Assembly: GCA_000442015.1 (NCBI GenBank)
Contig: KE560523.1
Location: forward strand, 62,001 to 108,215
DNA length: 46,215 bases
Origin: Rozella allomycis CSF55
Taxonomy: Eukaryota
Direction of reading: 5' to 3'
Shown here: piece by piece, positions 1 to 38,758 of the stretch
Position numbering within the stretch: position 1 is the first letter of the stretch
Layout: each line of letters opens with the position of its first letter
Program-made: the position numbers and the translations under genes
The notes under the pieces: generated by a model
Told to the model about the DNA's origin: nothing
Databases searched by the model: none
Seen by the model: only the letters and a program-made list of their open reading frames with translations

Positions 1-2001
1 GGGCGTTTCGGAGTTTGGATGTATTTGAGCATATTTTGAGTAGCTTTCAGTCCATTTATTTTCTACTCTTGAAATTAACAAATCTTTGCTTAACGATATT
101 TCTATTTTATGCGCATATGATGGACCTACCGAAAGTCTCGCAGGCCGCCCAAAGTGAAAATAGCCTATACGAGGATTCCAGCAAGCCTAACTTTGAACAA
201 ATTAATTCGAATGCTCTTGCAACTGTCACATTCTCAGATACACATATTGTAACAATAGCGTCATCGCAACATTTTACATTGATTGCCTTATTTTCGAGCA
301 TTTTTGCCTATCCGATATTTTATATTATAGTAGCATACAAGTTTTCCCGTCTTCTTTATTAGTGTGTATTTCTGAAAGGCTTCTAATGTGCATAGCAGCG
401 GACATTCATCGTCGTCTAGAAATCTGATAATGTCGCCTAAAGTATATTAATCGGGTGCAACGTACCATCTTTAGCAATGCATAATGCGTATCTTGTATAC
501 TCTTCTACTGGAATTCGGTATTTTTTCAAGATTAATTTTATGACTTCTGATGTAATATGTTCATCGGTTATTCTGAGTGTTTTCATGGGTTCCGATGGCC
601 TTATTTTATCTGCATATACTAGAAACTATAATGCATTGATCATACTTTTTATTTCTCTTATCTTTTAAATTTGAACATTTCACTTACTGTAACTGGCGAT
701 TCCGGACATGGATTAAGGTTGTGAGCTGTGGATATCCTTTTTAGTTTGAATAATCCTTTCCCTTTGGGGTCAATACTACGAGAATTATGAGTAAAAGAAT
801 TTCTTCGTCTTGTAAGATCAACAAATGCATTAGGTTCTTTAGTTTCGGATGCACTTCTGTTTCGTGCTTTAGGTATCGAGTCACCATTATTTTGACTCAT
901 TGGAAATTGATTCCCTGTAAGCTTTACAACATTTGACGTACTATAATTTGGAAATCCTTCCGCGGACTTCTTAACCAACGTGCGATCTTGTCTCCCATCA
1001 GGTATAAAAAAGTCTTCATCAAGTGACTTTATTTTCGATTTCATCTTCCCTTTGACCGTATACGCTTCATAAAATTGATTTTCCTTAATAATATTTGATA
1101 ACTTGACTGTTTCATCATCATAAACATTCGAATTGTCATTTGTCGGTACTGCATCTTCACGCTCGCAAATTACATCTAACGCAAATGATTCCATAACTTC
1201 TGTTATTCGATCCTTGAAGTTAAATATTGAATATCTCTTATCGATTTCGCTAATGTAAGATTCTGAATAATGCAATGCCTGTAACCATTGTATCCACTCA
1301 ATGTCATTGGTGAAATAGAAAGTACAGTCGTTTATTACCATGCTTGGTAAAACGGTAGCTTTATTTTCAAAAATTATGTCTTCTCTGCATAGAATGTATT
1401 CTGCTATGCTTTGTTGCATAAATTCCTTGTGCAATGTCAGAATTCCTTCAGACAGTTCCATGAAGAATGTATACAACTTAAAAAGTATGAAATTTGATAT
1501 TACCTGGTTATTTTCTGAATAATAATATAGATAGCTCATATACTCACCATTGTCAATGTTTATGTACTCATCTCTTTGTTGTAAATAGTCATTAGTATTT
1601 AGGTGTTCCAATTTTTCTGCAATATAGTAATTATACAATGCCTTTGTTAAAGCTGTTTTCCATTCATAGACTTTGGCATCCGAGATGCATTTCAGATGAA
1701 CTTCGAAAACACCAGGGACAACGATCATGAATTCGTCAGAGTCAAGGCTTTCGTTGACCTCTTTAGCCAAAAATTTTGAATTAAAAGAAAGCTATTGTTC
1801 ACTTATTAGATCAACTTTACTTGGTAACATTCCATTTCAATTTCACTCTCATCAGATGTAAATCTCAACAAGCAATTGTCTCGCAGCCAGAATATATAAA
1901 GAAAGAAATTGTTACTTGAAATAACCATACTTATAATCTGATGTCTTGTTGAATTTGTATGCCAGATAGGTTTCTATTGAATATTTTTCTATTTCAACCA
2001 T
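1..2001 (-). CDS. Multi-domain signalling scaffold: PH-like domain(s) + Ras-association (RA)-like + start of FERM-like domain; runs off the window edge
   Basis: Manual splicing (6 introns) gives MVEIEKYSIETYLAYKF..KYGYFKLRDNCLLRF..VYEWKTAL (PH-like), IKIYADKIRPSEPMKTLRIT..VIKLILKKYRI..YALC..RFLDDDECPL (RA-like) and INVKCCDD..TVARAFELICSKLGL..LFSLW (FERM-N-like). Intron 1 (1888-1915) appears to be GT-TG. Confidence 0.6.
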
Positions 2002-2091
2002 TGTTTTTGTTATGAAACGGTCAAATTAAGATGGTAACCGATACCGCGCAAAAACAGGGCAAGGAGTATTAAAAATATTTTTTATATACAT

Positions 2092-2734
2092 TTAAATAAA
2101 TCCGTTTGGGGTAATAATATGATCCAATTTAACGTCGTGGCTCTCTGTGGGAACATTTTCGATAATTTGACTGTCAAAGCAAAGTGCTACTAAAATTTGC
2201 GAGGCTTTGATCTATATTACTTGTAGTGATATCTTTTTTTTGGCCCAGGAATCGGTCGTAATACCCCATTCCGTACCCGAGACGGTGTTTACTAGTGTCG
2301 AATGCTAATCCAGGGACCAACACCAAATCAATAAAATGATTAAATGCGGTAATTTTTTGAAGAGCTTCGTTAACCTCAAATGACTTGATTCCGAATCTAT
2401 CCCGACTCAATGCTTCATATTCCTCCATACTGTTTAATTGCACCATGTGAAGCCGTTTTTCATATATAAAAGGTATCATGCATGTTTTGTTTGAAAGAAA
2501 AATATTTTCCAATATTGAATAAGTATTTATCTCATGGGGAAGGCTCAAAAACGTAGATATTGTGCGCGCTTTTTGATAGATTTTCGAATTAACTAGATGA
2601 TTTTGCACCTTCAAACCTATTCCATAATTTAATTTTATTTTACTCTGAAAATGCCTATCTTCGTCCTTCATTTGATAAAGTAGTCGCTTCATTGTATCGC
2701 GAAGCTCTTTTTTTGCTACCTTTATGGAATCCAT
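2092..2734 (-). CDS. MTHFS: 5-formyltetrahydrofolate cyclo-ligase
   Basis: IDLVLVPGLAFD..RLGYGMGYYDRFL motif and C-terminal VPTESHDVKLDHIITP after splicing 2 introns. Confidence 0.93.
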
Positions 2735-2827
2735 TTATTATATAATGTATAAACTGTCTTGGATATTTTAAAAATGACATTACTACATATTTATAGTGCC
2801 ACTTTACAAGCAAAGACTCAGCCACTT

Positions 2828-4450
2828 ATGCAAAGTAACCAACAGAATAGTCTATCTTGTCCACACTGTAGTTCTGTTGATATTGAAATTAACGGAGCTG
2901 AAGGAATAGCCTTTTGCTCCAATTGTGGAACCGTAAGATAATGATAAAGCAACAAATCAGGTGTTGGAAGAAAATACTATTGTTTCGGAAGTTACGTTTC
3001 AAGAATTAGGAAACGGAGGAACAGCATTACAAGGGCAGTTTGTTTCTGCTGATGGTGGTTTAAGAATGATGAATAATCCATTTGGAAAAAGATTAAATGC
3101 ACAAGAATCAAGACAAGTAACTATAGGGATTGGAAGGAGGAGAATTCAAATGTTAGCCTCTGTTGTAAAGTTAAATGAGCATCACGTCGATATGGCACAC
3201 AGATGGTTTATATTAGCGTTAGAAAATAACTTTACTAGAGGCAGAAAGGCTCAAAATGTTGCGGCAGCCTGTTTATATATTGTTTGCAGGACTGAAAAAA
3301 CCTCTCGTAATTAGAAATTGTTTTTGTTAAAAGATTTATTGATAGATTTCGCTGAAGCTTTGAGAACAAATGTCTATTATTTAGGGAATACTTTTCTTAA
3401 ATTGACGCGTGTTTTAAGCGTTGAAATTCCTTTAATAGATCCATCATTGTATATTCCAAGGTTTGCTGCAAAATTGGATTTTGGTGAGAACACGCAAGTT
3501 GTGACAAATACAGCACTACGACTGGTTTCAAGAATGAAGAGAGATTGGCTGCAAGTTGGAAGGCGCCCAAATGGTCTTTGCGGAGCAAGTAATAAATAGT
3601 GATAAAATTGAAAGGTTTATTGATTGCAGCAAGAATGAATGAAATAACAAATCTTGATCCCAATGAAGTCGCCAAAGTCGTTAAAGTTTGTCTTGGAACA
3701 ATACGAAAACGCTTAAAAGAATTTCAACAAACCCCATCAGCGAAACTTACTGTGGAAGAATTTAATGATGTTTGGTTAGAACAGGAATCGAATCCACCTT
3801 GCTTTAAAACTGAAGAAATCACTAATAAAGTTATAGATTCATTAGATGGGGTAGATGAAGCTGTTGATGATGATCTAATAGTTCCAACAAAAATTCTTCA
3901 AATTAAAAACGAAAATTCACAAAATCTTTTGGCGCCATTGTCACAAAAACAAAAGGAAATCTTAGAAGTCCCTGATGATGAAGTAGAATGGTCAGATTTA
4001 GATGATGATGAAGTTTCCACATGTTTATTAAATCAATTCGAAATTGAGCTTCGTACAAATGTCTGGACTGATTTAAACAAAGATTATTTGGAGGAACAAA
4101 TGGAGAAGAGGAAATTAGAAACTGATACAAAAGATGTCGTAAAGGTTAAAAAGCCAAGGAAGAAAAGAGAGAAAAAAGAACCAATCGAGGCTGCGACTGC
4201 TGAAGAAGCCGCAAGGCAAACTTTAGCAAAGAAATTTTCCAAAAAGATAAATTACGACGCCCTCTCTGACATGTTCAAACCTGTTACACCTGATTCTGCA
4301 ATTAATTCACCAAATATCCAAAAAGCAAGTCCAAACGATGAAGCTCTTGAAGAGTCTGAAGTAGAAGATGAAATAGAAGATTCTGGCAATTATTCTTCTG
4401 CAAGAAAAGCTTTAGGTTATAACAACTTTGAAGATGAAGATTTTGATTAA
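2828..4450 (+). CDS. BRF1: TFIIIB subunit Brf1
   Basis: Zn ribbon CPHC..CSNCGTVLEENTIVSEVTF, cyclin folds (GRRPNGLCGA), C-terminal KKFSKKINYDAL; 3 introns. Alternative in-frame ATG at 2774. Confidence 0.95.
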
Positions 4451-4545
4451 AATTAATAAAGAATGCATTTCTATTTTATTGCTACATTTATTCACATTTT
4501 CACAATATTTATTTTATTCACAATATTTACTTTATTCATGACCTT

Positions 4546-5318
4546 CTATTCACGTTCTTCTTTTGGATAATATGATTGTTGTTCAAGCTCGTCTAGTTCA
4601 TCCCACCTGCTTTTAATCATTTTTCTTATTTGAACCGCCTTGGCAGCTGGGTATTCCTCCTCCAATAGTTTTCCAGTTATTTTCACAAAGTTTCTGTAGG
4701 ATTTTTGTTTCCAAAACTTAGGAACGCCTTCCAACAGGGTAGAATTATTACTTTTCGGTGCTGTTAGATTGAAGCTAGAAAGGTCTGATTCGACCTTTAA
4801 TGCTTCATAATCTGAGTCAATATCAATAAAATTGCCAATAAAGTCAGATTCTGAAGATACACCATCACTGTGACTTTCATGAGAATATTGGGATTCACTC
4901 ATTAATTTAAAGCTACTTTCGCTTAATTCATTTTCATTTATTTCATTTCCTTCCGAATTCAGCGGCAACGTTTGATCAAAATAATCAGAGTCCTCTTGCT
5001 CCAATATTTTTAAAACAAATTTATATTTTGAAGGCAACAATTCAATATACTCACCATTCTTGATAATATATCTCTTTCCCTTTTCCATAATTTGATCCAT
5101 AAAATGAGATGGATTCAAACCAAGTGTTTCAATATAACAAGATTCATTATTCCAAAATATGCACACTTTAATAAAGATCACGGCTAAAAATTACCTTGCT
5201 TTCGAGAAACGTTTGGATCAGATATTCCTAATAAGTTTGATCTTCCCAAAAAATACGGAGTTTCTTTAGGTATATCATAATCTTCATCTTTATAGGTTAC
5301 TTTGACTGTTGATAACAT
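4546..5318 (-). CDS. PNKP/aprataxin-type FHA domain protein with acidic linker and C-terminal HMG-box-like region
   Basis: Spliced N-terminus FLGRSNLLGISDPNVSRKQVCI..LGLNPS (FHA GR/SR/NP signature); C-terminus SYRNFVK..EEYP..IRKMIKSRWDELDELEQQSY. Confidence 0.65.
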
Positions 5319-5357
5319 TTCAAAGTGCAACCATGAAATTCCAAAAAAATATTTTGT

Positions 5358-5926
5358 ATGATAAGAATTGAATTTTCTGATAATCCTAATGAAGAATTAA
5401 AATCATGGATGATAAACTTGATCGAAGAAAATGCCAGAGGTGACTATGAAACCTCTGAAGAAGGCTGGGATCGGGACAAAAAACTGAGAGAAATAAGTCA
5501 CCCGGAAGCCAAATATTTATATGTTTACCATTCAGATAATGCCATATTACCGATTGGATTCTCACATTACAGAATTGAAGATGAGGAAAGGTTAAAAGGG
5601 GGGACAAGAAAGGTTTTGTACATGTAAATCATACCATCTTAACATCATATAGTTACGAAATTCATTTCATGGCGCAATATACAGGGAAAGGATTCGGGTC
5701 AACATTGATGGAGAATTTAGAACAACTGGGTAGCCAAAATGGAGTCTCCGATTTAATGCTAACAGTCTTTAAGAGAAATAATTATGCTCTATCATTTTAC
5801 AAAAAACGAGGGTAAGGATAATCAAATCATGAAATCAGATTTATTAAAGATGAGCTGTCACCTGAAGATAAATCATACATGATTTTATCCAAACCTATGC
5901 GAAGAAGAAGAATCAAATATATCTAA
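5358..5926 (+). CDS. NAA40: N-alpha-acetyltransferase 40 (NatD), GNAT family
   Basis: GWDRDKKLREI, GFSHYR, LYIYEIH..GKGFG, LMLTVFKRN..ALSFY; 2 introns. Confidence 0.85.
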
Positions 5927-5991
5927 ACATTGGTTGGCGTGATCGAAATAAATTTGGACATTAAACTTAGCCACTGTTTCAAAATTTCAAA

Positions 5992-6380: not shown

Positions 6381-6499
6381 AAATTTGAAAAAGGAAATCG
6401 TTACTTTATTTATTATTTTACTCAAGACTCAATAAATTTTTTATTAAGCGTTAATTCATTTTTCTAACAATCATTCTTGTGGCTCAGTCAAAAAAAGAA

Positions 6500-7300: not shown

Positions 7301-7375
7301 ATAAATGCATTTAAACATTTAAACGTTCTGGAGTTCTTTCCTGTTCTGTTTGGCCACTGCGCCTCGCTTTCAAAA

Positions 7376-8865: not shown

Positions 8866-9278
8866 ATGGTTAATTTGGAGGAAAAAAGAGTTGAATTCAT
8901 TCAAGATTTAATATCCGCCTGTTCGAAGGCTGCTGGTGCGTGTGCAGTAAGAATCATAAAATTTCATAGACATATGGTGTGTTCTCAAAGGGCTACAGAA
9001 CAGGGCATAGGATGCTGGGCACAGTGCAGGGCTTCAGCAGGTAATTGTGTCAACTGTGGACCATTTAGAATTGCTTAAATGCACAATGGAGTTAATAGCT
9101 GTTAAGGATCCCTTGCTAGATGAGTTAAGGCCTATAGTTTATAAGGCTTTGCAAAGATCGGCAGATTATTGTATTAAGGTACATGCAATCAATCATTTTA
9201 AAAAAGCACGACAATTGGCATTGTCAGCTATGCGCAAAAGAATCTCTTAATGCGATTAATTATTTGAAGCAGTTGTGA
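8866..9278 (+). CDS. Cys-rich four-helix-bundle protein, Csp3/YhjQ (DUF326) copper-storage-like, 108 aa
   Basis: After removing introns 8947-8976 (GT-TG), ~9041-9068 and 9179-9206: ..LISACSKAAGACAVC..GCWAQCRASAEL..DPLLDEL..YCIKHDNWHCQLCAKES. Confidence 0.65.
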
Positions 9279-9333: not shown

Positions 9334-9892
9334 ATGAGTTTTGTTCCACCGTTAAACTTTGCCCAAGTATTACCAGGTGTTTATAGATCTGGCTATCCCA
9401 ATAAGAGAAATCACGGGTTTTTAAAGAAGTTAAAACTAAAATCAATTTTGTATAATTTGCAAAGATAATTCATTCAGATATCTATGTCCAGATAGTTATA
9501 CCAAAGACAACGAAGTATTTGTTAATGAAGAGGGTATAAGATTTTTTCATTGCCAGTTAACTGGAAACAAGGTAAAGATGGTAAAAGATCCATTTGCGAG
9601 GAACCATTTGTTGAGATTGACAGAAATGATATAACAAAAGCGTTAAGCATAATTTTGGACACGGAAAACCTCCCCATCTTGGTTCATTGTAATAAGGGAA
9701 AGGTATCGTTTTCCATTTTGTGAAAAGTAGCACAGAGTTGGATGCGTCGTGGCAGCTCTTAGGAAAATTCATGGATGGTCTTTGACAAGTATATTTGATG
9801 AGTATGAACGATTTGCTGGTGCCAAAGTGAGAATTGCGGATCTTGAATTCATTGAACTTTTTGTGCCAAATCTAACGTCCTTAACGCATTAA
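9334..9892 (+). CDS. Siw14/Oca-family atypical dual-specificity phosphatase
   Basis: VPPLNFAQV..GVYRSGYP, HCNKGKHRVG catalytic loop, WSLTSIFDEYERFAG; 3 introns. Confidence 0.9.
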
Positions 9893-9990
9893 TAAAATAA
9901 ATGTAATTTAAAATTAAAACATGTTTAATTATTTTTTCTCTTTATTCGGTTAAAATAGTCGGTTGACCCTGGCCTTAAAACTAGAAAAAG

Positions 9991-11432
9991 ATGGCAGACA
10001 ACACAGACGAACAAAACATTGAAATGTGGAAAATTCGGAAGCTAATAAAAAATCTGAATGACGCTAAAGGGTAAGTCAAAGTTTTTAGGCAATAGGATAG
10101 TGCAGGAACTTCTATGATATCTTTGATATTACCACCCAAGGATCAAGTTTCTAGAGCTCAAAAGATGTTGACTGATGAATATGGGACAGCATCTAATATT
10201 AAAAGTAGAGTGAATAGACAGTCAGTGTTATCTGCCATTACATCTGTGCAACAGAGATTGAAATTGTACAAAAATGGTAATATTATGTATATGAAATAAG
10301 CAAAGTACCAACCAATGGCCTTGTTCTTTATTGTGGAACTGTTTTAACTGAGGACGGAAAAGAAAAGAAAGTTTCTATAGATTTTGAACCGTTCAAGCCC
10401 ATTAATACATCCTTGTATCTTTGCGACAATAAGTTTCACACTGAGCCATTAAGCGAGTTGTTAGAATCTGATGCTAAATTTGGGTTTATCGTCATGGACG
10501 GTAACGGTGTGTTGTTTGGAGCTCTGACTGGAAACACAAGAGAAGTTATTCACCGTTTACAAATTGATTTACCAAAAAAGCACGGTAAGAACATTTAATG
10601 AAATATAAAAGGTCGTGGTGGTCAATCTGCACTTCGTTTTGCACGTTTGAGAACAGAAAAGAGAGCCAACTACGTTAGAAAGGTTGCGGAATTAGCAACG
10701 CAATTTTTCATTACCAATGATCGACCAAATGTTGCAGGGTTAGTTCTTGCTGGTTCTGCAGATTTTAAAACCGACTTGAAAAAATCTGATTTGTTTGATC
10801 AAAGATTGCAACCAAAAGTTGTCGCAATAGTCGATGTTCAATATGGAGGTGAGGATGGATTCAACCAAGCCATTAATCTCTCTCAGGAAGTTCTCAGCAA
10901 TGTGAAATTTATCAAAGAAAAGAAATTATTGGAACAATTTTTTGAATTGATTTCTCAAGGACAACCATTGATTTCTTATGGGCTGAGCGATACTTATAAA
11001 GTAAAACATGTTTTTCCTTTTAAAAAGGCATTGGAAATGGGCGCAGTGGAAACTTTAATTGTTTGGGAAAATCTTGATATAATGCGCGTCACTTTAAGAA
11101 ATAGTCAACTTGGAACTGAAAAGGTTGTTCATTTAACGAAAGAACAAGAATTGGTTCGCGAGAACTTTATGGAAAATGGTCAAGAGTTGGATGTTGTTGA
11201 CCGTGTTTTGTTTGTTGAATGGTTGACCCAGTCGGAAGAAGGCCAACCTGCAAATTACAAACAATTCGGTGCTACTCTTCAATTCGTATCAGACAAATCT
11301 CAGTACGGTTCTCAGTTCGTCAAGGGCTTCTCTGGAGTCGGCGCCATTTTACGCTACAGTGTTGATTTTATGAATTTACAAGATCAAGGAGACTTTTTAG
11401 AAGATGATGATGATTATGATGATTACTACTAA
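9991..11432 (+). CDS. SUP45: Eukaryotic peptide chain release factor eRF1
   Basis: GTS, TASNIKS, YLCDNKF and GRGGQS motifs intact; 4 introns. Confidence 0.98.
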
Positions 11433-11480
11433 TTTATTTTAATAAATCTGCAATTCTTTTGTCTTTCTGCTTCGCCACAT

Positions 11481-12455
11481 ATGTCTTTTGTTTTGCCTTT
11501 CTCATCATATCGTTCTCTGATTGCGGATATTAAATTTTCTCTAGCACCTTCTGAATCTTTTCTTAAAAAATATTCACAGTAAATTTTATTCTGCCCTATC
11601 AAAGTATAAATACGGGCACTCTGAATGCAATTTTTAGTCAACAATTGCGAGCACATGTCTTAAAAACATTTCATTTACACAAAAGGAAAAGTCACCAATA
11701 TTATAACTTGTAAAAAAATACATTTAATATCTATTATGATGCTCAAATAATACACATAAGGAATATATCGTTTCACTTGCCGAGAAGATACAGTTACCGC
11801 CATGCGTCTTAGCTCGATTAATACTAGCAACTCATATTGATATAACAGAAGAAGCATTAACAGAAAAAGCTAAAAAGAAAAAGGTGACAAACTGGCTGCG
11901 TGAAATGTCTAATTTTGAGCCATTGTGGCTAAAAGAACAGATAATGCATTGTCTAAATGTAGACAAAATGTTTTCTCCAGATGGAGATCTTATTCGATCA
12001 AATGTTGGAGAACTTGGAGAAAACATTCTAACGAACATTTTAGAACACAAAGGAATACCTTTTCATAGTACAATTATCAACATTTCATTCATTTAGCGGA
12101 AGATGAATTAAGAGAACTAAATTTTCACAAAACTCCAGATGTTAGACTAGAAATTCCTATTGGTATGTATTTAATTTTAGACTAATAAAGCTGTAAAAGG
12201 CAGAATTGTACATTGGATTGAGAGTAAAGCACTGTTCGGTGACTATTATCATCATAAGAAATACGATGAAGCACAATACTCTAGTTATTACAACAGGTAT
12301 TTCACGTCAATTTAGAAATAAGCAGATATGGTCCAGGTTTAGTGATTTATTGGGCAGGTTACATTAAGGAGCTGGAAGAGTGCCAAGATTTCCTTGTCCT
12401 TCACGACTTTCCGCGAGACGAAGATATTGAAGTGATTAAATCACCTTTTCTATAA
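11481..12455 (+). CDS. CDIN1: CDAN1-interacting nuclease 1-like (C15orf41/TPD, PD-(D/E)XK fold)
   Basis: TLNAIFSQQ N-terminal region; KTPDVRL..WIESKALFGD..QYSSYYNRYGPGLVIYW; 5 introns, intron 2 (11710-11738) appears to be GT-TG. Confidence 0.85.
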
Positions 12456-17002: not shown

Positions 17003-17741
17003 TTATTGTATATTAGCAAGATAATCTTTAATTTCAGCTTCAGTTAATTTCTTGAACTTTCCAGTACTGGATTGCACAATTCCAATCTCCAAATTACTTG
17101 CAGTCATATGTCCCTCAAAGCCTTCCTTTAATGTAAGAATAGCTGTATGGATTGCATCATCCAGTTCCATATCTTCAGCATATCTCTTTTCCAGAAAAGT
17201 TTTTGCATTCACCATATTCTTGCCAATCGCTGAAGCTTTCCAAGCCCAGTATGATCCAGAAGGATCGACTTGATAAAGAGTTGGTCCATGATGATCATCT
17301 ACTCCTGCGATCAATAAAGAAACACCAAATGGTCTAACACCACCAGATTGGGTGTATTCTTGCATAACAGCGGCGACTTCTCTCACCAACTGCAATGTAG
17401 GTGGATTTTCTTTATACACATTTAAATATTCTTGAGCGGATTTTCTTGATTTACGAACGAGAAGTCTGTAATCTGGACCCATACCAGAATAAACCATTCC
17501 TATGGAATCGCAGACAGTAGCTACTTTTTCAATAGTTGAATCTTCAATTAAAATAGAAGGGGTTTTCTTTTCTGTTGCAATAACTACTCCATTTGTCGCT
17601 AAATAAATGCCATAGTCTTCGGATACCTTTTATGCCTACACTGGTAACACCGGCGTTAACAGCATTTAAAGCGTATTCTATTTGCACTAGTTTGCCACTA
17701 GGTGAAAATGTGGTCAAGGAGAAGGAATATCGACTGGACAT
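17003..17741 (-). CDS. PRE8: 20S proteasome subunit alpha-2
   Basis: [35 protein letters not shown]; 1 intron. Confidence 0.97.
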
Positions 17742-17947: not shown

Positions 17948-19030
17948 ATGCAAATGATTTACCCTCCAAAATTTCTACAAAGGTGTTTCCGAAATTCGGT
18001 TATGCCTTTAGACAAAATATCGAATGTTTTCGATATAAGTACATTCTTGACACATGAAACAAAAGCGACTCTAGAGAAGGCTTTTGAGAATGTAAAAGCA
18101 CAGAGAAAGGAAACTATGAAACTTGATTTTTTAATCAAAGTGTTACACGAGTTTTGCAAAGAAAATCCGGTAATCATATCAACATATAAACCAAAGCAAT
18201 TATTTAAAGTTGAAGAGCTTTTGAAACTTTATAGAGTTTCAAGATATGTTGATGANAAACTTTATAGAGTTTCGAGATATGTTGATGAAAAATCATTTAT
18301 GGGCATTGACACAATTGAATTAAATAGTGAAATTACGAAATTAGAGAATGAAATAAACGATAAGCAAATAGTTTCTAGAATATTGGCGCCTGCCATTGAA
18401 GAAAAGATCTTCGAAATAGCCTCCGCTTTAACGAATTTTGTATATGGTGATAACGAAGGGAGTAATGCTGGTATAATTTTATTTGCAATCTGTATAGAAT
18501 TAAGTTGGCAATTTTATGACATTCTAAAGTATGTAGAAGGAAAACAACGATCAATTAAAGAACTGTCTGAAGCTCAAATTGTTAACTCACATGAAATTCA
18601 AGTGTTAATAATTAAAACTTTTGATTTAATTGAATCTCTGATAGAAAACGTTTGTGAGTTGCTTCATGAAATAAAGGGTGTACACTGCATTGAAGTAAAC
18701 GCCTCTTTTAATCAACATTATTGTTCAGTTTTGCAAAATATTCACCTTAAACTCGAGTAATGAATTGCTTTAAGATTTATATCAAGATGCTTAAAATACG
18801 AAGCGCTTTTACAGGTTTACGATGAGCCTACTGTTCAAGCACTGCGGACGATTAGAGAGACATATCAAATGGAGCTAATAAGTGTACAAGAAAAATTGAA
18901 CTCAATAGAACATGAGCTAGACCAATATAAGATTCTCGGTGATGAATTCATAAGCCTCAGTACACGTTACAAGTCGGTCTTGGATCAAATAGCGATAATA
19001 CAGGACGATTTAAGTCGATTATCCGTATAG
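17948..19030 (+). CDS. Augmin/HAUS subunit 4-like coiled-coil protein
   Basis: Spliced C-terminus LKLECLKYEALLQVYDEPTVQALRTIR..LDQYKILGDEFISLSTRY resembles the HAUS4 C-terminus; 5' end uncertain; assembly duplication at N 18256. Confidence 0.6.
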
Positions 19031-20106: not shown

Positions 20107-21202
20107 ATGTTTTTAGACGATTACCTAGATAGTAAAATTGGTTCGTGACGGTCTTATAGCGGTTGAAGCGTTACCAGTAGATTTGCAAAAACATTTATCA
20201 GACATTAAGGCTCACGATGCGCAAGCGGCAAGTAATAATGATTATCTTCTTTCATATTGAAATATTTGAGAATATTAAAAAGAATACAGAACTATTACTC
20301 TCTGATCAAGGAGAAGAAAACCATCAATCACGTTTAAAAGAAATACATGAACTATTTACAGATATTTTGCAAAAGTCAAATGAAAAACTTGCTTTGGCAA
20401 CAAATGCGTATAATATTGTACAAAATCATTTTGTATTTAATAGGTTGATAAACATGTTATGCGTTTAGACAAGGACTTGGAGAAATTCGAGGAGGAAATG
20501 AACAGGAATGCCGCTCATATAGTCGCGAGAAGTGAAGAAACTAACGAGCAGCCTGCTAAAAGAAGTAATTTTCTTATTTGAATCTAATGTAGGGAGAAGG
20601 CAGGTCAATAAAGAGAAAGAAGTGAAAGAAAGAGCACCGTCTCCTGATAATTCAGTAACTAGTGAAACACAACCTGTTGCATCAAGAGCAAGACGTGCGG
20701 CAGCAAGATCACAGCGATTGCGCGAAGCCAGTTTATCAAAAGAATCGCACTCTAGAACCAGAAATACATCATCCGTCAGAAAGTAAAGGGTTTATGTAAA
20801 TTATAGTTCAGTGAAGATGATTCAGAACAATCTGAAAAGGAAGATCCTGCTGAAGACAAAGAAGAAGCTGAAGTAAAGGAGGAAAAGGTTGAAGAGCAGA
20901 TGCAAGTTGACGAACCAGCAGTTGAAGAAGACGAAAACAGTGAAAAGAAGGAAATGGATTCCTCGCCCCGCAAATTCAATGTTAACGACATGCCTGTTGA
21001 CCCAAATGAACCAGTTTATTGTTATTGCAAGCAAGTTTCATATGGTGAAATGATTGCATGTGACAATGATGATGTAAAGTTTGGTTTATTTTAAGATTAG
21101 TGTGATGTTGAGTGGTTTCATTACGACTGTGTTGGTCTTTCACAGCCACCAAAAGGAAAATGGTATTGCAAGGAATGCGTGGAGAAAAGAAAGTTAAAGT
21201 AG
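20107..21202 (+). CDS. ING-family PHD-finger chromatin protein
   Basis: [17 protein letters not shown]-terminal domain; [41 protein letters not shown]; 6 introns, intron 2 GT-TG candidate. Confidence 0.93.
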
Positions 21203-24632: not shown

Positions 24633-25831
24633 TTAAAGATAACTTTTAATGTCCATTAGCATTTCTTCGATTTGAGTGTTGCATAATTTTTCGATTTCTT
24701 TGAGTTGAGGAGCAGATTCAGTGGTAATCAAGCTGATAGCAACACCTTTACGACCGAAACGACCACCATGGTTAAGACGATGAATATAGTTATCTTTGTA
24801 ACGTGGAATGTCATAGTTAATAACCAAAGCGCCTTGTTGAACATCAATTCTACGAGCAAATAAATCAGTAGCAATCAAAATACGGCATTGCCCAGATATA
24901 AATTCTTGCAAATTAGTATCGCGACTATTTTGATCCATGTCTGAATGATATGCCGAAGCAGTGTAGTTCCGATCTTTAAGTATATCAGTCAAATAATCAA
25001 CCTTTTTGCGTGTATTACAGAAAACAACAGCTTGGGTAACTGAAATACTTTCACAAAAATCAGTAAAGGTTGGAAGTTTGTGTTCTTCTCTTTCAACGTT
25101 TATGTAGAATTGCTTAATATCTTCTAAAGTCAAATCATCCCCCTTAACTAAAATACGGATTGGATCACGCATAAATTGCTTGGTAACTTCCAAAACATCA
25201 GTTGGCATCGTGGCGGACAATAAAACAACTTGGACAGATTCAGGAAGACGTCGAAAGATTCCATGGGTTTGTCCAGTACACCCCTTATATAAAATTTCAT
25301 CGGCTTCATAAAGAACAAACATCTTTAAATTATCAGTTCTTAACGCCCCGCGCTTAATCATATCCAAACACGTCCCGGAGTCCCAACAACCGCATGAACT
25401 CCAGCTTCCAAGCGCTTCATATCATCCCTTGCTGAAGTACCACCTATACATGAATGACTTTCAACGTCTAAATAGCTTCCAAGAGATGCCAACACCTTTT
25501 CAATTTTTTGTGCCAATTCTCTTGTTGGTGCCAACAATAAAGCTTGGCAATGCTTAATAGATGTATCTATTCTTTCCAAAATCGATATACAAATGGCGGA
25601 CGTTCTGCCTTTTCCATATGGAGCTTGTGCAATAACATTGTGCCCACATGTAATTGGGACAATAGAACGTTGCTGAATAGGAGTAGGTCTTTCAAAGCCA
25701 TACCCATAAATGCCACGTAAAAGTTCTTCCTTAAGGTTCATGTTGACAAAGTCATCAACATTTTCTTTCCATTTCGTCTCTAATACATTCACTGCGACAT
25801 TATTATAATGTTCTCCAGAATCAAAAATCAT
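24633..25831 (-). pseudogene. Intronless, frameshifted and motif-degenerate eIF4A copy (probable processed pseudogene)
   Basis: Clear eIF4A homology ([34 protein letters not shown]). 1-nt frameshift near 25365; motif I reads APYGKGRT, DEAD reads YEAD, motif VI reads HRLNHGG. Confidence 0.75.
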
Positions 25832-26010
25832 GGTTGAAAAAGCCGGTAAGGCGCAGCAATCTGATCTAAGATTGTTCGATTTTAAAGTAGCTTTTTAAGA
25901 CTTCTGTCTGCTAGGCTTACCTTAAAATGGCTAATGAGTGTATTGTGTATTACCAATCATTATTAATATTATATGTTAGTTTAAATAAATAGTTTATTGA
26001 TAATTTTAAT

Positions 26011-29746: not shown

Positions 29747-30786
29747 TCATTTATTTTCAACATTATAGTCGTAAAATCCTCTGCCAGTCTTCTTCCCTAA
29801 CCATCCAGCCTCAACATATTGGACCAACAAAGGACAAGGTCTATATTTGGGATCACCTAACTGAGAGTGAAGGACCTTGCATATAGCAAGGCAAGTATCC
29901 AGTCCGACAAAGTCCGCCAAGGTAAGGGGGCCCATAGGAACATTAGTGCCCGATTTCATTGTGGTATCAATGTCTTCTTTTGTTGCGATTCCCTAAATTG
30001 AATCTCAAAGAATTTTACTTCGTACAACGCGAAAATAGCTTCATTAATATAGGGAATCAAAATCCTATTGGCAATGAATCCGGGAATATCTTTGGAGACT
30101 GTTGTCACTTTTCCCATTTTCTTGGCGATCTCTATAGTTTTATTGAGTGTTTCCTTGGAAGTACCCAAACCAGGTATAANAGAAGTACCCAAGCCAGGTA
30201 TAACTTCGACAAGTTTCATAACCGGGACATTCATTTAGTTAATTCTGTTATTACCTGGATTCATAAAGTGCATTCCAATAACTTTTTCAGGTCTTTTTGT
30301 GACGGAAGATATCTTTGTAATGCTTATTGATGAAGTGTTTGATGCTAAGATGCAGTTTTTATCTGTTATAGAATCTAGTGTCTTGAAAATGTTTTGCTTC
30401 AATTCAGTGTTTTCACTTACAGCCTATTACATGCGATTAAAATATATACTTCAATGATCATTTCGCAATCAGAAAGATCGCCAATGGTGTTCACAATTTT
30501 CCTTCTTGAGCGTATTTCATTCACCTCATCAACCCTTAGTTTACCCTTTTCAACATTCTTATTTAACAATTTGTCTATTCAAATTAAATAAAATAATTAC
30601 CCATAAATAAACATTGTTGATTGAGTTGCTGAGGATTTGCATCAAAAATTGACACTTGGAGCTTTGCATTTGCTAGAGCTACTTGGGCTATTCCTATGCC
30701 CATTTGACCAGCACCGACAATACCAAGTTTATGGATCTTTAACTATTCACATTAAAGTTAATTACAAAGCGCTTTTGGGTAAACAT
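29747..30786 (-). CDS. 3-hydroxybutyryl/3-hydroxyacyl-CoA dehydrogenase
   Basis: [44 protein letters not shown] (needs GT-TG intron 30228-30254), [31 protein letters not shown]. Confidence 0.95.
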
Positions 30787-30874: not shown

Positions 30875-30947
30875 GGCTAGTTGGCGCAACTGGTAGCGCA
30901 ATCGACTCCAGATCGATAGGTTACAAGTTCGAGTCTTGTACTGGTCA
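30875..30947 (+). tRNA. tRNA-Trp (CCA)
   Basis: Cloverleaf: GGCTAGT/ACTGGTC acceptor stem, GCGC D-arm with TGG, ATCGA-CTCCAGA-TCGAT anticodon arm, GTTCGAGT T-loop. Confidence 0.95.
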
Positions 30948-31210
30948 TTTATTTGATTTTGAAAAAAATTCTATTTGATGGTTATGTTAACGCCATTTTA
31001 AAATTTTAAGTGTTTAACTTCGAGTACAGTACAATTGAAGCGGTTTGTGGCCAACCGCCAACTGTTTTGTATACTGGTTCAGCCTTCTCAAATATATGGC
31101 ATGGGCATTCAATGGCAAAAAAATAGTTATAGGACAATACATAATTGTGCATACATATATACATTAAAGTAATTGTTTTCATTTAGATTTACGATTTTCG
31201 AAATTTCTAA

Positions 31211-34200
31211 ATGACCGTCACCCAAGATGATCTCGAAAAAGAATTATTCCCTGGTGTGAATTCTACGTATGGCACGAAAAATGAATATTTAATATGGTCA
31301 TCTACTGTTGTCGAAGATAATTCATCAATCGTAGGAGCAATGTTGATTTTATGAATAGACAGCGGAAACAAATCCTTTTGAGGCTACCAAATATAAAAGA
31401 AATTTATGTTTAACAAGTAATAATAACATATTAGTTTTTTAGCTATTAAAGAAACCAACACTATGAAGCTAAATAAAGTGAAACAATTGTCTGACAAGAC
31501 GTTGACAATTATGAAGTCTTGGAAAATAGATGAGTTGAAAGGAATCACTTTGTTACAGGTAATTGTTTAAATAATATTTAATAGTCCAACAAGATTTCGT
31601 TTGAATTTAACAAGCCAAGCGTGTTTTACACAGAAAGTTATGAGCAAACAATTAATATAATATTTACGTTCATTACAGTATTAAAATCATTAAAAGTTTT
31701 ATAAAGACTTTTCAGAATTACATGAAAAATACAAAGTTAGTTTTGAACAACATCACCGAAAAGGAAGTGATTGACATTGTAAAACAAAACGCCAAAGAAA
31801 AGGCGGGATCGAAGATTATTAAAGAAGAATCTAAAGAGATTAATAATTATTCCAAAGAAGAAGATAAGTTTGACATTCAAAAATTATTTGAATCCTTTAA
31901 TTGGGAGGTTAATGATCCAGCAGAATTAGAAGACATCCTTGAGAGTGAACTGAAAGCTTTAGAAGCTGCAAATGTTTACGCATTACTTGAAGGTGAGAGA
32001 AAAAATAAAGAAATAATGTCACACATTGATTCTGGCTTGGTAGAAATGGACACTATTGACTCCATGCTTAACACTTATGCTACACAGCTAAATGTAAGGC
32101 GAAATTATTAAAATTAAAAGTTAATTTCTGAAGAAATACAGCAAATAGAAACGTTGAATAAAGGACTTCAAATTCATATTGCTAATCAGCAAAAATTGGA
32201 CATGGTCTTGGATGACTTTTTGGTATAAATTAAATTTATATATTAAGAGTTAAAACTTTACATACCTGACGACATTCTTACTTCTTTGGAAAACGAATCG
32301 TTGGAAACCGATCAAGGGATCTTAAATTTAGAAGAAACGACGATCGTTCTACGTGACACGTTGAATACCACATTTGCTTCAGGTAACTAATGATGACCCA
32401 AATAATAGGACTCCAAGGTCTTGCAGCAGTCACAGAGCGCATGGAATTGTACAGAACATCTGCATTTCAATTCAGCAACAGATTGTTCGATTGTCTGAAG
32501 CGCCACATAAAAACATTAATTGATCAAGCGATGCAAGAGAAAAGGTTTTCCAAAAAGGGTCAGTTAAGAATGTTAGCTCATGATTTTGCATACGAGAAAT
32601 TTTCGAAATATCGCCGCCTGATTCTATGGCTAAGGGATATTGAACCGCGCAGACATTTAGATTTGCAAGTTGTAAAAATAAATCAAAAATTATTATCAAA
32701 GTTATATCAGAGTGAATTTAACACGCTTTACAAAAAAGAAGTACGCGATTTGTTGGAAGCATTACGTGTTTATCATTTGAGCAAAAGAGAAGATGACGAA
32801 GCATGTAAAATGCAATATTTCCTTTGATAGTTTTTTCAACAAATTCTCAACTTTTGACATTACCTTCACTGCCTTTTACTGGAACTAAAGGGATATTTGG
32901 ATCTATGAGTGCGCTAAGAAGTTCAACGCATTCTAAAGGAAGTAAGAAGCTGGAATTCAAATTCCTTCAACTCTGACCTTGGAGTTGAGAAGCCAATCGA
33001 AATTGGTCCCGAAGATAAAGTTCCACTCGACATAGTAATATCAATATTTGTCATTTAAAAGGCTCTAAAACTTGTTTTCAATTGTATTTTTCCAATTATT
33101 TTAAAGGAGAGAAACTTTTGCATCAATTTATTTCATGCGGAATCTGATAATAACATTGCGATTAGGAATGAAGAATTAAAGAGTATTAAGGTATCTAAAA
33201 GGGTGAATTCTCTGCTTGAAGGATTGTTCGAAGGAACCAAAGCAGATATTGATTCGTTTATTGATTCTTGTTTAAAAATAGATAACACGTAATTTGAATT
33301 ATTTGTGATATTTTAGATTTTGTATTTCAATGCTAGTTGAAGTTGAAAATGAAATCAAAAAGGAAAAAGGAGTCGATTTAATTACCGAAATTTTGGAATC
33401 TATAAAAGCTAAATTGATTTCTTCATATGATAAATTTTTGGATGAGCAAGTTTCTGCTATTGAAAATGTAAAGTTTGATGCAAAGAAGCGTTCTGGAATT
33501 CTCCACACTATAAGGGTGTTTCCATTATATGTTGATAGAATGGAGAGTATATTGGGCAAATCAAATGAATCAAGCAGAGAATTAGTTAATAAATCTTATG
33601 AACGTTTTGGCAAAGCCATTTTTGTACACTTGGAAGCAGTTGTCAAATCGATTGATTCATTTGAGGAGAAGGAACAATTAAATATACACATACTCAATAT
33701 TGGTAATTCTCTTATTCATAATTAATAGAAAATCATCATCATTTATTTACAAGATTAAGAGCATCTTCAAAGGCATATTCAATTGAGAAATTCGTTAAAG
33801 ATTCCAAAGCAATTTATGACCAGCATTTGTCCATTTATTGCAAAACATTAATAAAAAAGAATATTGGAAAGCTAATTGTAATTAATTTGTTTCCAAGTTA
33901 TGGTAGGAATTCTTTGATGGAGTGAATGATGTTGTTCGTTTAAACAGTGCTGAAGAAGTCACATTTCATGTTAATTACAATAAAGCAAATGCCAAGAAAG
34001 TTATTTCTCAATATCCCTTAAAGGTAAGTGTTTATCAATTTCACCAATTAGGAATTTAAAAAGCTATTAGAAAATCTATACAAGAAAGTAGATAAACACT
34101 TTAGCGACGATGAAGGATTGATTCCTGTTGTATGGAGACATATTCAAGATGAACTGTTAACTAAATATAAAACCATGTCAGATCTCATTAGCAGGTGTTA

Positions 34201-34276
34201 TCCTGATTCCGACCTCTCGCTTAATTTTTCAATTAGCGATATTTTGAATATTTTTACTGAATTGGCAACTAAATAA
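31211..34276 (+). CDS. SEC3: Exocyst subunit Sec3/EXOC1
   Basis: N-terminal PIP2-binding-like region (MKSWKIDELK), ELKALEAANVYAL, IETLNKGLQI..NQQKL, KKRSGIL, LYKKVDKHFS..VVWRHIQ; ~14 introns. Confidence 0.92.
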
Positions 34277-34317
34277 ATATAAAGTGTATTTTTTGTATAT
34301 TTTGGGGTGGCTAAACC

Positions 34318-37109
34318 ATGGAAGTCTCTGACTTGAGGGAACGTTGCATAGAGGGTTCAGAGGAACCAGATTTTGACTCTATAATGTCTAATTTTTTCAT
34401 GTTTTCAACAACAGATGTAAAGGAAAAGAACGAACTTTTTCGATTTATGCTCGACTATTTTTCTAAAAGACCAAGTAACTTTATTAGAAAATGAATACAG
34501 AAAATTATATCAAAGCACATGAGCCAGTTTCGTTTATTTTAACCAGAGAATTGGAAACGAACGAAGCATTTGTGATGAAAAATGTTTGCCTATTTTATCG
34601 GGAGCTTATACTTAAATTGGATGATTCAGGAATAGAAAGAGTTTTAAAGAAATGCTTTGAATTGTTAAAGCCTTGTCCTGCCAAGAAACATCAATCTTAT
34701 GTGATTACGATATTACGTGATTTGGTATTTCATGATGCTACGTATGTGAGCCCAATTCTGTCATTTATGAAACACCAGTTATCCTATTCAGTGTACAATG
34801 GATTGCTGAATGTTATATTTTTTATTTCGAGAGCGAAACCTAAAGTGCTCAGTGAAGTTGTTCCAGTCCTTTTGAATGCATTTGAGAATCCACCGACGTA
34901 TTTTAATGAGAAACAAACAGAATCAATCATTCATTTACTCTATTTACAATTGAGAGGGTTATTGAAATTACCTGAATGTTCTCTTTATGAGGCATTAATT
35001 AGTGATACTTTTCAAAGAAGAAAGAGAGAAAGAGATGATGATTGGGAAGAAGAAATGGAGGAAGAAGTTCCATTATTGAAGAAACGAAAGCCATTAGTTA
35101 ATTTTGAAATATTGAAAGATCTTCCAATAAATATTTTGATTCAAGTGATTTTGTCTGAAATAGAAACGTTGGATTTGACTCTAGTTAAATTAACTGAATT
35201 GGATGTTGATAAGGGAATGATCACTAATGAAGCTGTGATTAAAGAAACAATGACTATGATAGAAGATTATGTAATTTTTATAACAATTGTTAATAAAGAT
35301 GAAACCAGTTGAAGTTGATTTTCATTTGAAGGGTATGGATCCATTAGAGCCTGAAGAGTCTTGGAAACAAATGAAAATGGCACTTTCAAGAATTTTAGAT
35401 CAAGAATACCCAATGTCAGTCACTTATAAACAACGTGACTTTTGGATGAAACAAGTGTTGCAGTTGTTTTGCGTAATTGTTGAAATTGGTAATAATTTAT
35501 TCAAACTGTTTTATTTTAGAAAATATAAATATTAAAGAGTTAAATGAATTCATGTTAAACCATTTCCTTCAAGACCTTCGTGTTCGATGTGACTTGGTTT
35601 TGACGTGGCTTCATATCATAAATGTCCATTTTCCAAGTGAATATGAAGATTTGACAACCAAATTATTAATAAATGCTGCCACTACTCTGGATCCAAAAGA
35701 CAAAACAATTACAAGATTGTTGCTTGAACTACCCCGGTTCATGAATGACCCCTGTCTTTCGGTTACCTTTTATTTTTTGATTGACAATGCAAGGTAAGGA
35801 TTCCTTTTTAGACTCAATTAAAGACTTCCATTGGGATTAGCAACATTAAGAGAGCTATTTGTTAACAGACCAGTGTTGATTAAGACATTACTACCCTTGC
35901 TAGCAAATATTTGTTCATCTAATGATAAAATGAAAAGAACATCAGCGATTATTCTTGTAAAGAAATTTTTTCTGGAGAGCGATGAACTCTTTAATGAACT
36001 TTACAAGATATCGTTAGATTTCTTTGATTGCTTAAGACAACCTATTCCCCCAAAGATTAATAAAGAATTAAACTTTAAAATGTTATTGGAAGTGAAAGAT
36101 GAATCTGATAATTTACTAGAAGAGTGGACAGAATCTGAAGTTTTAAGATATTTGGAATTAAGTCTTGTTTTATGTATGAAAAAACATGAATTATTATTGG
36201 ATTTATTTAAATTATATTCTGACATTGATAATGAAGTTGTTCATAAAACTATTAGAACTCAAATGACTGTCGTTGTAAAGTCCATGGGAATGAATTTGCA
36301 ATCGCTGGAACTTTTATTATCTAAATTTCCTGAAGGTTCTGAATTAGTTGTTTTGCGAATGTTGGTTATTCTAACAGATAAAGAAAAAGCTTCAAAGGAA
36401 TTAGTGACCCTGGTCATTGATGCTATTCAAAATAGAAATTTGGATTCCAGATTTTTTGTCCCAATTTTATCTTCAATGAATAAAAATCAAATTTTGAAGA
36501 ATCTTTACAGAATAGTTAATGTGGAAACCAAAACATGCAAGGAATTATTGCAGCGTATTTTGGACTCTGGAATTCTTTCCCCAGCAGAGTTGATGGTTTC
36601 TTTACATGGAATCGAAAATGAACTTGGGTTAAGAAAGACAATGGAAGCTGTTGATGTTTGTTTTGAAATATCAGAATCTTTTCCTTCAGATATTTTGGCT
36701 GCTGTTTTGCAAAGAATTGCAGATCAAACAGATCTTCCAACTTTATTCTTCAGAACAGTAAATATTTTCATTATCTATTCTAGGCTATTCAAAGTGTTAC
36801 TCTTTTCAAAGATCTTAATGGATTCGTTGGAAATTTATTGGCTAGATTGATAACTAAAAAGGTTTGGACAAACCCAAGACTATGGGAAGGATTCATTAGA
36901 TTATCAAAAGTAAATCAAAATTTTTATTGTCATAGATTATTTCACATCATTCGTTGGTCGCAATATCTCAATTGCCAGCAGCTCAGCTAAAAGATCTTCT
37001 AGAAAGATCCCCAGAATTCAAAGATAAATTAAAAGTTTGGCTAGGAAAGAAGAATAGATCTTCCAGATTCAAAGCTATTTTGGATCTCATTGGTGATGAT
37101 GTAGAATAA
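34318..37109 (+). CDS. Symplekin/Pta1-like 3'-end processing scaffold
   Basis: LSPAELMVSLH, LPTLFFRTAIQS, LITKKVWTNPRLWEGFIR, QLPAAQL; 6 introns. Confidence 0.88.
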
Positions 37110-37147
37110 ATTCATTTTAATTAATCAAACTTTTTTATTTCACTCTC

Positions 37148-38183
37148 TTACTTTCTGGTAGCGTATGATATATATTCTGGTGTTGCGTAATCATAATTAG
37201 ATTCACTAAACCATGTCTTTGAATTCTTAAAAATGTAACTTGTAAATCTCATTAAACTCAAATTACTCTACAAAATCTTCCAAATAACTTTTAATCTTTT
37301 TTCCTTCAGCTTCCTCAACGTTAGCGGATGCCATCAGCATTGGGAATTTCACTATCTTCCCTTCAAACAAAGTTTTACCAATCAATCTCAATAAATGTTC
37401 TGGACCATAAATTTGTGACATTGGAAGGTTTGGATGCTTTTTAAATACTTCAAAATATTGTTGGCGCTCAAATCTGTACAGCAAAATTGTTCCAAGACAT
37501 TTATCAAAATATAAATGCAATCCTTTGATAAACTCAATGAATTCGTCCTTTTCCTTTCTTTATCAACAATGAAATTATATTCTACTCATTCATACTAGGC
37601 GTTTTTGATATTCTGTATTCATCTAAAATGTGTGAAACAGTTGGATTTCTTGGCAAAGATAACAATCTTTGCGTTTTGGTTATATATTCCCATTCATCAA
37701 CAAGTACAAGCTTCAAAGCTTCGGGTATATCAAACTTGAACACTGCGGTATTCATCCTAGGTGGTTCATCTTTATTTCCATCTTTCAATCACATACCCTT
37801 TTCCTTATCTGGTTGACTCTTCTGTGGTCCATCAGTAGCACCATTATTTTTTACAAAGTATGTCTGCTTCAAATTCTTTTGCTGAATAATATTTTCTTCA
37901 TTAAACTTCAAAAGTCTGTCTTCAGGTACCCATTCATCCCAACTTTTCACTTGAATTATTTCCTCTTACCTGCTTTTCCACCCCTTATAATGCACAAAGT
38001 AATAAACACCATCGTCCAACTCGGCATCGTCTACAGCCAGTTTTCTGTTCGAAATCTCTTTTGGTCAAAAATAGTCGTTACTTTGGCCTCATACATCAAA
38101 GGACCGTGAAAACACAACACCCTTTCATTAACTTCGTAATTGAAATCCACATCTTGTCCTGTACTACTTTCCTCCTTTCCCAT
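37148..38183 (-). CDS. EAF3: Chromo-barrel + MRG domain protein Eaf3/MRG15
   Basis: ERVLCFHGPLMYEAK, YFVHYKGWKSSWDEWV, LLYRFERQQY, YGPEHLLRL; 6 introns. Confidence 0.95.
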
Positions 38184-38235
38184 TACAGTCCTCTTTAAAG
38201 TCTTAAACTTAGCCACGAGTATCGACTTGAATTTA

Positions 38236-38758
38236 ATGAAAGTGAAAAGAATACCATCGCCAAATGAATTTGATTCTGTTATTTCAAGCAACTTGGACTC
38301 TCCGCATGTCTTTATCATCTTTTTTGGTAACGGCCAAATTCAAAATCTTTCTTATAGGGACTGAAGACCCGAATACTAATGAATCATGGTGTCCTGATTG
38401 TGTTATAGGTAACTTTAGTATTCACGCATGGAATAGCCGATCCAATAATACGACGTACTATTGCGACATATGCCCCATCTGAAACAATTTTGATTGAATG
38501 TCCTGTAAATCGCTCAGAGTAATAATAATGATAATAATTGATAGTTACAAAAATAATCCTGGCTATTTTTATAGAAAGCATCCCCTCATTCAACTTGAAA
38601 GAATACCCACCTTATTTTACTATTCCAAAGAACAGGTAATTATGTAAAAAATATTATAAATGAATAATTTAAATGCTAAATTAGTTGAAAATGAGTGTCA
38701 ATCGCCGGGTAAAGTAAGGTCCTTTGTGATGCAGGAGGTTTCTAAAAATAAACATTAG
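38236..38758 (+). CDS. TXNDC17: Thioredoxin-related protein TRP14 (DUF953)
   Basis: SWCPDC active site, IPTL, KLVENEC; 4 introns, last one (38636-38662) appears to be GT-TG. Confidence 0.88.

Follow-up and report, generated by a model that had tools for sequence, protein, structure and literature searches.

Introduction

Acceptor sites ending in TG have been described in human genes, where they have been verified, are always alternative, lie within 28 nt of an AG and account for about 0.01% of the candidate motifs, in the sections consulted here of the study by Szafranski et al. (2007; PMC2374985). The same sections report that human mutations turning an acceptor AG into TG activate neighbouring AGs and not the TG. 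Similarly, the portion of PMC4176328 used here describes rare GT-TG introns in human RNA-seq data, in GNAS and TSPYL2, as isolated and often tissue-specific alternative events. The literature on short introns describes AG acceptors in the parts cited here (PMC13644364, PMC6349667); one excerpt gives the intron size of Rozella as '~30 nt' (PMC6349667), the sole mention that we found, and Rozella is not listed in the main-text sections consulted of the 2026 survey of ultra-short introns (PMC13644364). In this report we analyse a stretch of 46,215 nt from the fungus Rozella allomycis CSF55 (assembly GCA_000442015.1, contig KE560523.1, positions 62,001 to 108,215 of the forward strand; hereafter the window, whose own coordinates are used throughout), in which an initial annotation, made from the letters of the DNA, proposed six mini-introns in unrelated genes that begin with GTA and end with TG in place of AG. 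Our search of the open literature, which did not cover the Rozella genome paper itself, found nothing on non-AG splicing in Rozella, and the dense ~27-nt introns of this organism seem to have received little description in the literature searched.

Results

Six segments beginning with GTA and ending with TG

The six segments are located as proposed, and all of them begin with GTA, as the modelled AG introns do, and end with TG. We number them site 1 (1888-1915, minus strand), site 2 (8947-8976, plus), site 3 (11710-11738, plus), site 4 (20232-20259, plus), site 5 (30228-30254, minus) and site 6 (38636-38662, plus). Their lengths (28, 30, 29, 28, 27 and 27 nt, respectively) are within the narrow intron length class of this genome, the bodies of the TG mini-introns are AT-rich, and AG is absent from the last 15 nt of each segment. 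The proposal that five of the segments would shift the frame or introduce a stop if retained was also borne out, as retention changes the frame at sites 1, 3 and 4, while site 5 contains one in-frame TAA and site 6 contains two.

Other parts of the proposal needed revision. Five of the six segments are plausible as introns, two of them strongly so, while site 2 may be coding. The assertion that a sensible protein is obtained only by cutting at TG was overstated, since GT-AG introns that keep the frame can be drawn at four sites (at site 1 either 46 nt long, from a GTT donor, or 52 nt long; 58 nt at site 4, 51 nt at site 5 and 60 nt at site 6); it stood at site 3, which has no such alternative. 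Public Rozella gene models use the 46-nt alternative at site 1 and the 51-nt alternative at site 5, and in doing so lose conserved residues. Judged from the reading frames and their homologues, there is a strong indication that removal of the segment would restore an interrupted conserved frame at sites 5 and 3, the apparent need for removal is moderate at sites 4 and 1, and it is weak at site 6, where frame logic is the single argument.

Downstream of the TG an AG is found at +8 (site 1), +22 (site 3), +11 (site 4), +24 (site 5) and +22 (site 6). By our own estimate, about 80% of random positions would also have an AG within the next 28 nt, so that this arrangement is weak evidence for a tandem of the TG-AG type. 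At four of these five sites the nearest downstream AG is out of frame, and just at site 5 is it in frame, where its use would delete conserved residues. No shared branch-point motif was obvious by eye among the segments.

Sites 5 and 3: dehydrogenase and TPD/CDIN1-family genes

The strongest case is the 27-nt GTA..ATG mini-intron at 30228-30254 (minus strand), which carries an in-frame TAA and interrupts a 3-hydroxyacyl/butyryl-CoA dehydrogenase gene. The upstream exon (P0001) could be aligned up to its last residue with three solved structures (6aa8_A, residues 109-162; 4r1n_A, 88-142; 1f0y_A, 107-162), and the downstream exon (P0002) from its first residue, at position 164 of 6aa8_A, 144 of 4r1n_A and 164 of 1f0y_A. 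More than 10 solved dehydrogenase chains match both flanks with one residue between them, and because exactly one residue remains for the split codon, precisely these 27 nt must be removed, or else a segment of equal length displaced by a single base, with GG..AT as its ends. The public model P0003 uses instead a 51-nt in-frame GT-AG intron (30204-30254, minus strand) that deletes 8 conserved residues (VPVMKLVE). The 24 nt so dropped encode the conserved VPVMKLVE of the family, which matches the solved structures residue for residue, and the 3HCDH_N match of P0003 covers 172 residues for 179 profile positions. P0003 and the window differ at four residues.

The dehydrogenase gene (29750-30730, minus strand) carries four mini-introns, and an N-flanked duplication in it reads IPGLGTS-X-IPGLGTS. 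One of its exons shows 70-80% identity to very many metagenomic proteins, of which the named ones are bacterial, and is much less similar to animal HADH; this may reflect an old transfer, or merely a very conserved segment. A tRNA-Trp (CCA) gene lies just upstream, in the opposite orientation (30875-30947, plus strand).

At site 3, a 29-nt GTA..ATG mini-intron (11710-11738, plus strand) lies between exons 2 and 3 of a gene of the TPD/CDIN1 family with a Pfam TPD match, and here there is no canonical alternative. Residues 31-66 of the homologue P0133 are matched by exon 2 (11606-11707; pairwise E value 5e-05), and the alignment of exon 3 begins at about residue 72. Exon 3 is matched by sixteen representatives of the library, and the full-length ones among them (262-280 aa) put its start near residue 65-72. 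The two exons are in different frames, one of which is closed by a stop after the donor and the other by the TGA at 11737-11739, so that the stops bracket 11711-11739 and a start of exon 3 upstream of 11739 is impossible. There is no AG in 11710-11758, and the first one, at 11759-11760, is out of frame. The nearest in-frame ends, at 11738 (29 nt) and 11741 (32 nt), are both TG, while those further downstream are not. In the public model P0125 the protein begins only with an internal Met, residue 56 of the query; evidently the annotators could not bridge this junction. A metagenome scan for relatives of the gene gave 137 pattern matches, none of which was confirmed.

Sites 4 and 1: ING and PH-like genes

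The 28-nt GTA..TTG mini-intron of site 4 (20232-20259, plus strand) is located in an ING (inhibitor of growth) gene, where the Pfam ING profile gives coordinates on both sides: residues 5-31 of the upstream exon correspond to profile positions 4-30 (E value 0.006) and residues 5-51 of the downstream exon to positions 37-86 (E value 0.003). Extrapolating from these coordinates, the two exons would abut with one split codon only if 28 nt are excised; the E values of the fragments are weak, and a one-residue indel would also fit. The nearest AG, at 39 nt, leads to a stop, and the in-frame AG at 58 nt (20232-20289) costs ten residues.

Site 1 is a 28-nt GTA..CTG mini-intron (1888-1915, minus strand), delimited by a three-frame reading, that follows the first exon, beginning at ATG 2001, of a gene with a PH-like and a Ras-association domain. 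The public model P0123 has here a 46-nt GTT..AG intron (1880-1925, minus strand) that deletes GYFKLR; set against the DNA of the window, it reads ..SDYKYDNCLLRF.. at the junction. If the GTA donor is joined to the nearest AG (+8), the frame meets a stop, and a cut at the TG gives ..YGYFK-LRDNCLLRF.., which by our own reading is a probable strand pair of a PH domain. Searches of Pfam with the tiny exons of site 1 gave no match. With residues 1-100 of P0123, the ESM-Atlas returned PH clusters only, at scores of 0.79-0.85, which we regard as a lead only.

In the rest of this gene (658-1791, minus strand), P0123 omits three in-frame pieces (9, 10 and 42 residues) of what our open reading frame scan reads as one exon, and the 42-residue piece looks like real coding sequence; stop-free in-frame mini-introns and over-splicing by the annotation are hard to separate in this region.

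Sites 6 and 2: the weak cases

Site 6, the weakest of the five candidates, is a 27-nt GTA..ATG segment (38636-38662, plus strand) of a TXD17-like thioredoxin gene; TAA occurs twice in frame within it. In the Pfam TXD17-like_Trx profile, exon 1 covers positions 23-42, and residues 5-29 of exon 3 cover positions 75-99 of 119. The coding sequence could instead stop at the TAA at 38645, inside the candidate intron, which would cut the domain about 19 profile positions short. The exon downstream of the segment has no match in Pfam or in the PDB, and a protein search with the TXD17-like gene gave no match; reading through the site adds just 0.8 bits to the TXD17 match. This exon may resemble the C-terminal motif of animal TXNDC17. 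Searches of the PDB with the short exons of sites 2, 4 and 6 were likewise without a match.

Site 2 is a 30-nt AT-rich GTA..ATG segment (8947-8976, plus strand) in a gene for a small Cys-rich protein. It is in frame and stop-free, begins with GTAAG and, if read through, encodes VRIIKFHRHM; its GC content is 0.23, against 0.53-0.63 in the flanks. A sub-threshold Pfam Hus1 match on the read-through was set aside as probably spurious, as the gene, of only ~118 codons, is far too short. Site 2 is thus a candidate intron that may simply be coding, and we have left it out of the claim on TG acceptors.

Gene content and ordinary mini-introns of the window

The window is nuclear DNA of Rozella allomycis: one dehydrogenase exon matches P0003, a protein named by NCBI as from Rozella allomycis CSF55, with 100% identity, and Pfam finds housekeeping genes typical of eukaryotes (BRF1, Ski2, symplekin, an IQGAP-type RasGAP, a kinesin and a chromate transporter). 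The GC content is 34% across the window, and the standard genetic code fits, as open reading frames of at least 120 codons end on TAA, TGA and TAG alike. A ciliate code or origin was dropped because the long open reading frames use all three standard stops and the proteins are of fungal type, and Blastocystis was dropped because the count of its TGTTTGTT motif (5, against 4.94 expected) is at the level of chance. An origin from a dicyemid or a myxozoan, to which PMC13644364 had pointed, was dropped in view of the Rozella name carried by the protein with 100% identity.

With a crude exon-chain gene finder of our own we collected 74 GT-AG introns in the window, whose lengths peak at 26-29 nt (26 nt, n = 21; 27 nt, n = 11; 28 nt, n = 7; 29 nt, n = 13). 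In the refined gene models, all AG-ending introns have a GTA donor and just one intron is longer than 32 nt. Two conserved genes were re-read by hand: the p24 gene has GT-AG introns only, of 26, 26, 28 and 27 nt, and so has the proteasome alpha gene (28 nt). Since these two genes need GT-AG alone, TG acceptors would be a minority class and not the mark of a general sloppiness.

Some individual introns deserve mention. The proteasome alpha-subunit intron (17599-17626, minus strand) has the donor GTATCC, unlike the GTAA or GTAT(A) usual nearby. The only model intron above 32 nt (32942-32984, plus strand) is a 43-nt GTA..GAG intron for which there is an in-frame 34-nt GTA..CTG alternative, which would make it a possible additional TG intron; homology offers no guide here. 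In the eRF1 gene, at about 11000-11030 (plus strand), a stop-free, in-frame piece of ~27 nt, read as KVKHVFPFK, breaks a conserved motif of eRF1 and probably represents an intron. The contigs of a sequencing run differ from the window by 1 nt at 11022, inside this probable intron.

The genomic T and the state of the assembly

The genomic T was confirmed at one site: the T at 11737, in site 3, is also present in the DNA contigs of run X1, which are independent of the assembly of the window. The contig concerned (record 4, covering 9776-12029) differs from the window by substitutions at 10988 and 11234 only and by 1-nt gaps at 11022 and 11712. The gap at 11712 falls in the site 3 intron, which is 28 nt long in the run contigs versus 29 in the window. 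By inference, a second Rozella assembly likewise has no AG at sites 5, 1 and 3, since the models P0003, P0123 and P0125 avoid an intron of modal length there. The RNA run X8 gave only matches of 30-45 nt at 90-95% identity with the window, with no usable joints, from which we conclude nothing.

The assembly of the window itself has irregular stretches. Short N-flanked tandem duplications occur at 18223-18257, around the N at 30180 and at the Ns at 42375 and 43053. The one at 18223-18257 (33 nt) is skipped by the contigs of all three DNA runs, which indicates that the N-flanked duplications are scaffolding artefacts. Between 4809 and 7081 the window shows 22 differences in 2185 nt from runs X1, X2 and X6, compared with 2-3 per ~1.7 kb elsewhere, a cluster that suggests a second haplotype or a divergent allele. 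An eIF4A-like DEAD-box gene at about 24645-25894 (minus strand) has a frameshift inside the conserved GTPGRV..DMI stretch (25250-25520) and YEAD instead of DEAD; it is a pseudogene, a diverged paralogue or the product of a homopolymer assembly error.

Discussion

On balance, and from what the DNA and its homologues indicate, we think it probable that the window contains genuine GT-TG mini-introns that are productively spliced at the TG. The segments do not look like random artefacts: at least two of them, and probably four or five, would be introns of modal length with consensus GTA donors. At sites 5 and 3, and probably also at sites 4 and 1, the conserved protein appears to be restored without a break only by excision ending at TG. 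From the composition of the window, our own rough arithmetic puts the expected frequency of TG at about 0.06. The recurrence of TG by chance is unlikely, given the boundary fixed by homology at site 5 and the fact that both nearest in-frame ends at site 3 are TG.

How do these introns compare with known systems? They resemble the human TG-AG tandems, as described in the sections consulted of PMC2374985, in the GT donor, in the TG acceptor with an AG at most 28 nt downstream, and in the conservation of G at -1, just position -2 being altered. They differ in that the human TG is never the sole acceptor, whereas the TG at the five Rozella sites would be the only productive one, as the closest AG breaks the frame at four of them. 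An AG within 28 nt is found at all five sites, and a viable AG isoform, the other hallmark of the human tandems, is not. The frequency also sets them apart, as TG would account for roughly 4-7% of the introns of the window (5 against the 74 GT-AG introns found, or against the ~130 introns counted in the initial annotation). The human GT-TG introns described in the part of PMC4176328 used here share the terminal dinucleotides and a U2-like consensus, and unlike those of Rozella they do not form a recurrent class within 46 kb. Compared with the canonical mini-introns of Rozella, microsporidia, ciliates, myxobolids and dicyemids, the GTA donor, the 26-29 nt length, the AT-rich body and the genes and density in which they occur are alike, and the acceptor dinucleotide is what differs. 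U12-type introns (AT-AC or GT-AG) are also a class that includes ends other than GT-AG; their donor and branch-site consensus is absent from the five Rozella sites, whose donors (GTAACA, GTAAAA, GTAATA and GTAATT, that is, GTAA followed by C, A or T) are those of the neighbouring GT-AG introns.

We propose that these are ordinary U2-type mini-introns, with a consensus GUA donor, a modal length of 27-29 nt and an AT-rich body, in which position -2 of the acceptor is U and not A, and that splicing at this UG would yield the productive mRNA. In an intron of 27 nt, the active site of the second step may reach just a narrow window past the branch point, and within this reachable window G(-1) would be essential and U(-2) tolerated. 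Structures of the C* and P complexes obtained by cryo-electron microscopy place A(-2) in contact with the branch adenosine and G(-1) in contact with the 5' G(+1). The AG found 8-24 nt downstream at five sites may aid early recognition, as has been proposed for the human TG-AG tandems. More tentatively, and with somewhat less than even confidence, we suggest that the spliceosome of this organism constitutively takes UG in about 1/20 of its 26-29-nt introns, measuring the distance like a ruler and with only G(-1) as an essential position.

Several observations weigh against productive splicing at TG. An in-frame GT-AG intron can be drawn at four of the five sites, and the public models P0003 (51 nt) and P0123 (46 nt, GTT..AG) have adopted one at sites 5 and 1. 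The AGs lying 8-24 nt downstream at the five sites reproduce the geometry of the human tandems, in the excerpt on which this analogy rests, so that a dependence on AG is possible. The boundaries of sites 1, 4 and 6 are not fixed by homology to the nucleotide, and ends in TT, CT, AA, TA or AT are possible there. At site 6, the want of a Pfam or PDB match for the downstream exon counts on the same side. In a codon-score control, all the non-AG dinucleotides that were allowed gained score (TG 28.3, TA 27.8, AA 25.2 and TT 24.1), so that TG does not stand out in this control. Among the 'TG introns' that it proposed, many fall at gene boundaries, at an N artefact, at a patched frameshift or in a mis-modelled p24 gene. 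The assembly, moreover, has defects (the N-flanked duplications and the broken eIF4A-like gene). The case for TG is built instead on the boundaries fixed by homology, on TG being the sole G-ending option at each site, and on the modal length combined with consensus donors.

Could canonical splicing account for these sites? The transcripts might carry longer GT-AG introns, either 46-60 nt in length or reaching to the first AG downstream, with proteins that lack the segment between the TG and the AG. The in-frame AGs of site 4 (58 nt) and site 6 (60 nt), together with the public models, speak for this, as does the switch to neighbouring AGs described for human AG>TG mutations in the sections cited of PMC2374985, since in Rozella each of the five TGs is followed by an AG at no more than 24 nt. 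We nevertheless consider it unlikely. No AG gives an in-frame solution at site 3, site 5 would lose 24 nt of a conserved core that aligns to solved structures, and at four of the five sites the nearest AG is in the wrong frame. The TG introns have GTA donors and lengths of 27-29 nt, whereas the canonical alternatives, at 46-60 nt, would rank among the longest introns of a window in which a single modelled AG intron exceeds 32 nt, and the model for site 1 requires a GTT donor where all modelled AG introns have GTA.

It is less probable still that the TGs are lesions. They would then be acceptors lost not long ago, in a reduced parasite, from dispensable genes whose alleles are decaying or heterozygous, or else residual errors of sequence, and the transcripts would be mis-spliced or degraded. 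The same window holds a probable eIF4A-like pseudogene with a frameshift, more than one haplotype is apparent from differences of ~0.1-1% in places between the window and the run contigs and from the four residues that separate it from P0003, and minor alleles are invisible in the Logan contigs. Decay or error would however have to produce the same A-to-T change at -2 in five genes with otherwise intact frames and no other type of splice-site lesion seen, while random decay should yield G>A (AG to AA) at least as often; the T of site 3 recurs in the X1 contigs, and at three sites the gene models of the second assembly point to the same condition. Finally, there is a small chance that part of the set are not introns, site 2 being plain coding sequence and site 6 the end of a coding sequence (stop at 38645) followed by a 3' untranslated region. 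The 30-nt, in-frame, stop-free nature of site 2 agrees with this, and its sharp dip in GC content and GTAAG start do not; for site 6, the unmatched downstream exon and the mere 0.8 bits gained by reading through agree with it, and on the other side an early stop would leave the TXD17-like domain truncated by those 19 or so profile positions.

What would GT-TG mini-introns mean? The terminal AG is among the most invariant signals of eukaryotic gene expression, and a free-standing TG class would bear directly on it. If the constitutive use of UG is true, Rozella would be the first organism in which a sizeable class of U2-type introns depends for productive splicing on non-AG acceptors alone. A fungus whose introns measure 27 nt would also lend itself naturally to studying how the second catalytic step selects the 3' splice site. 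This raises the question of what recognises position -2 (the branch adenosine, U2AF35-like factors, or Prp8, Slu7 or Prp18) and of whether intron length serves as a ruler. The annotation would also be affected, as public Rozella models lose conserved residues (hydroxyacyl-CoA dehydrogenase), a probable PH-domain strand, or the N-terminus (TPD/CDIN1-like protein). Since gene finders insist on AG, inferences on gene content and gene 'loss' in Rozella, a key sister lineage of the microsporidia, may be affected as well.

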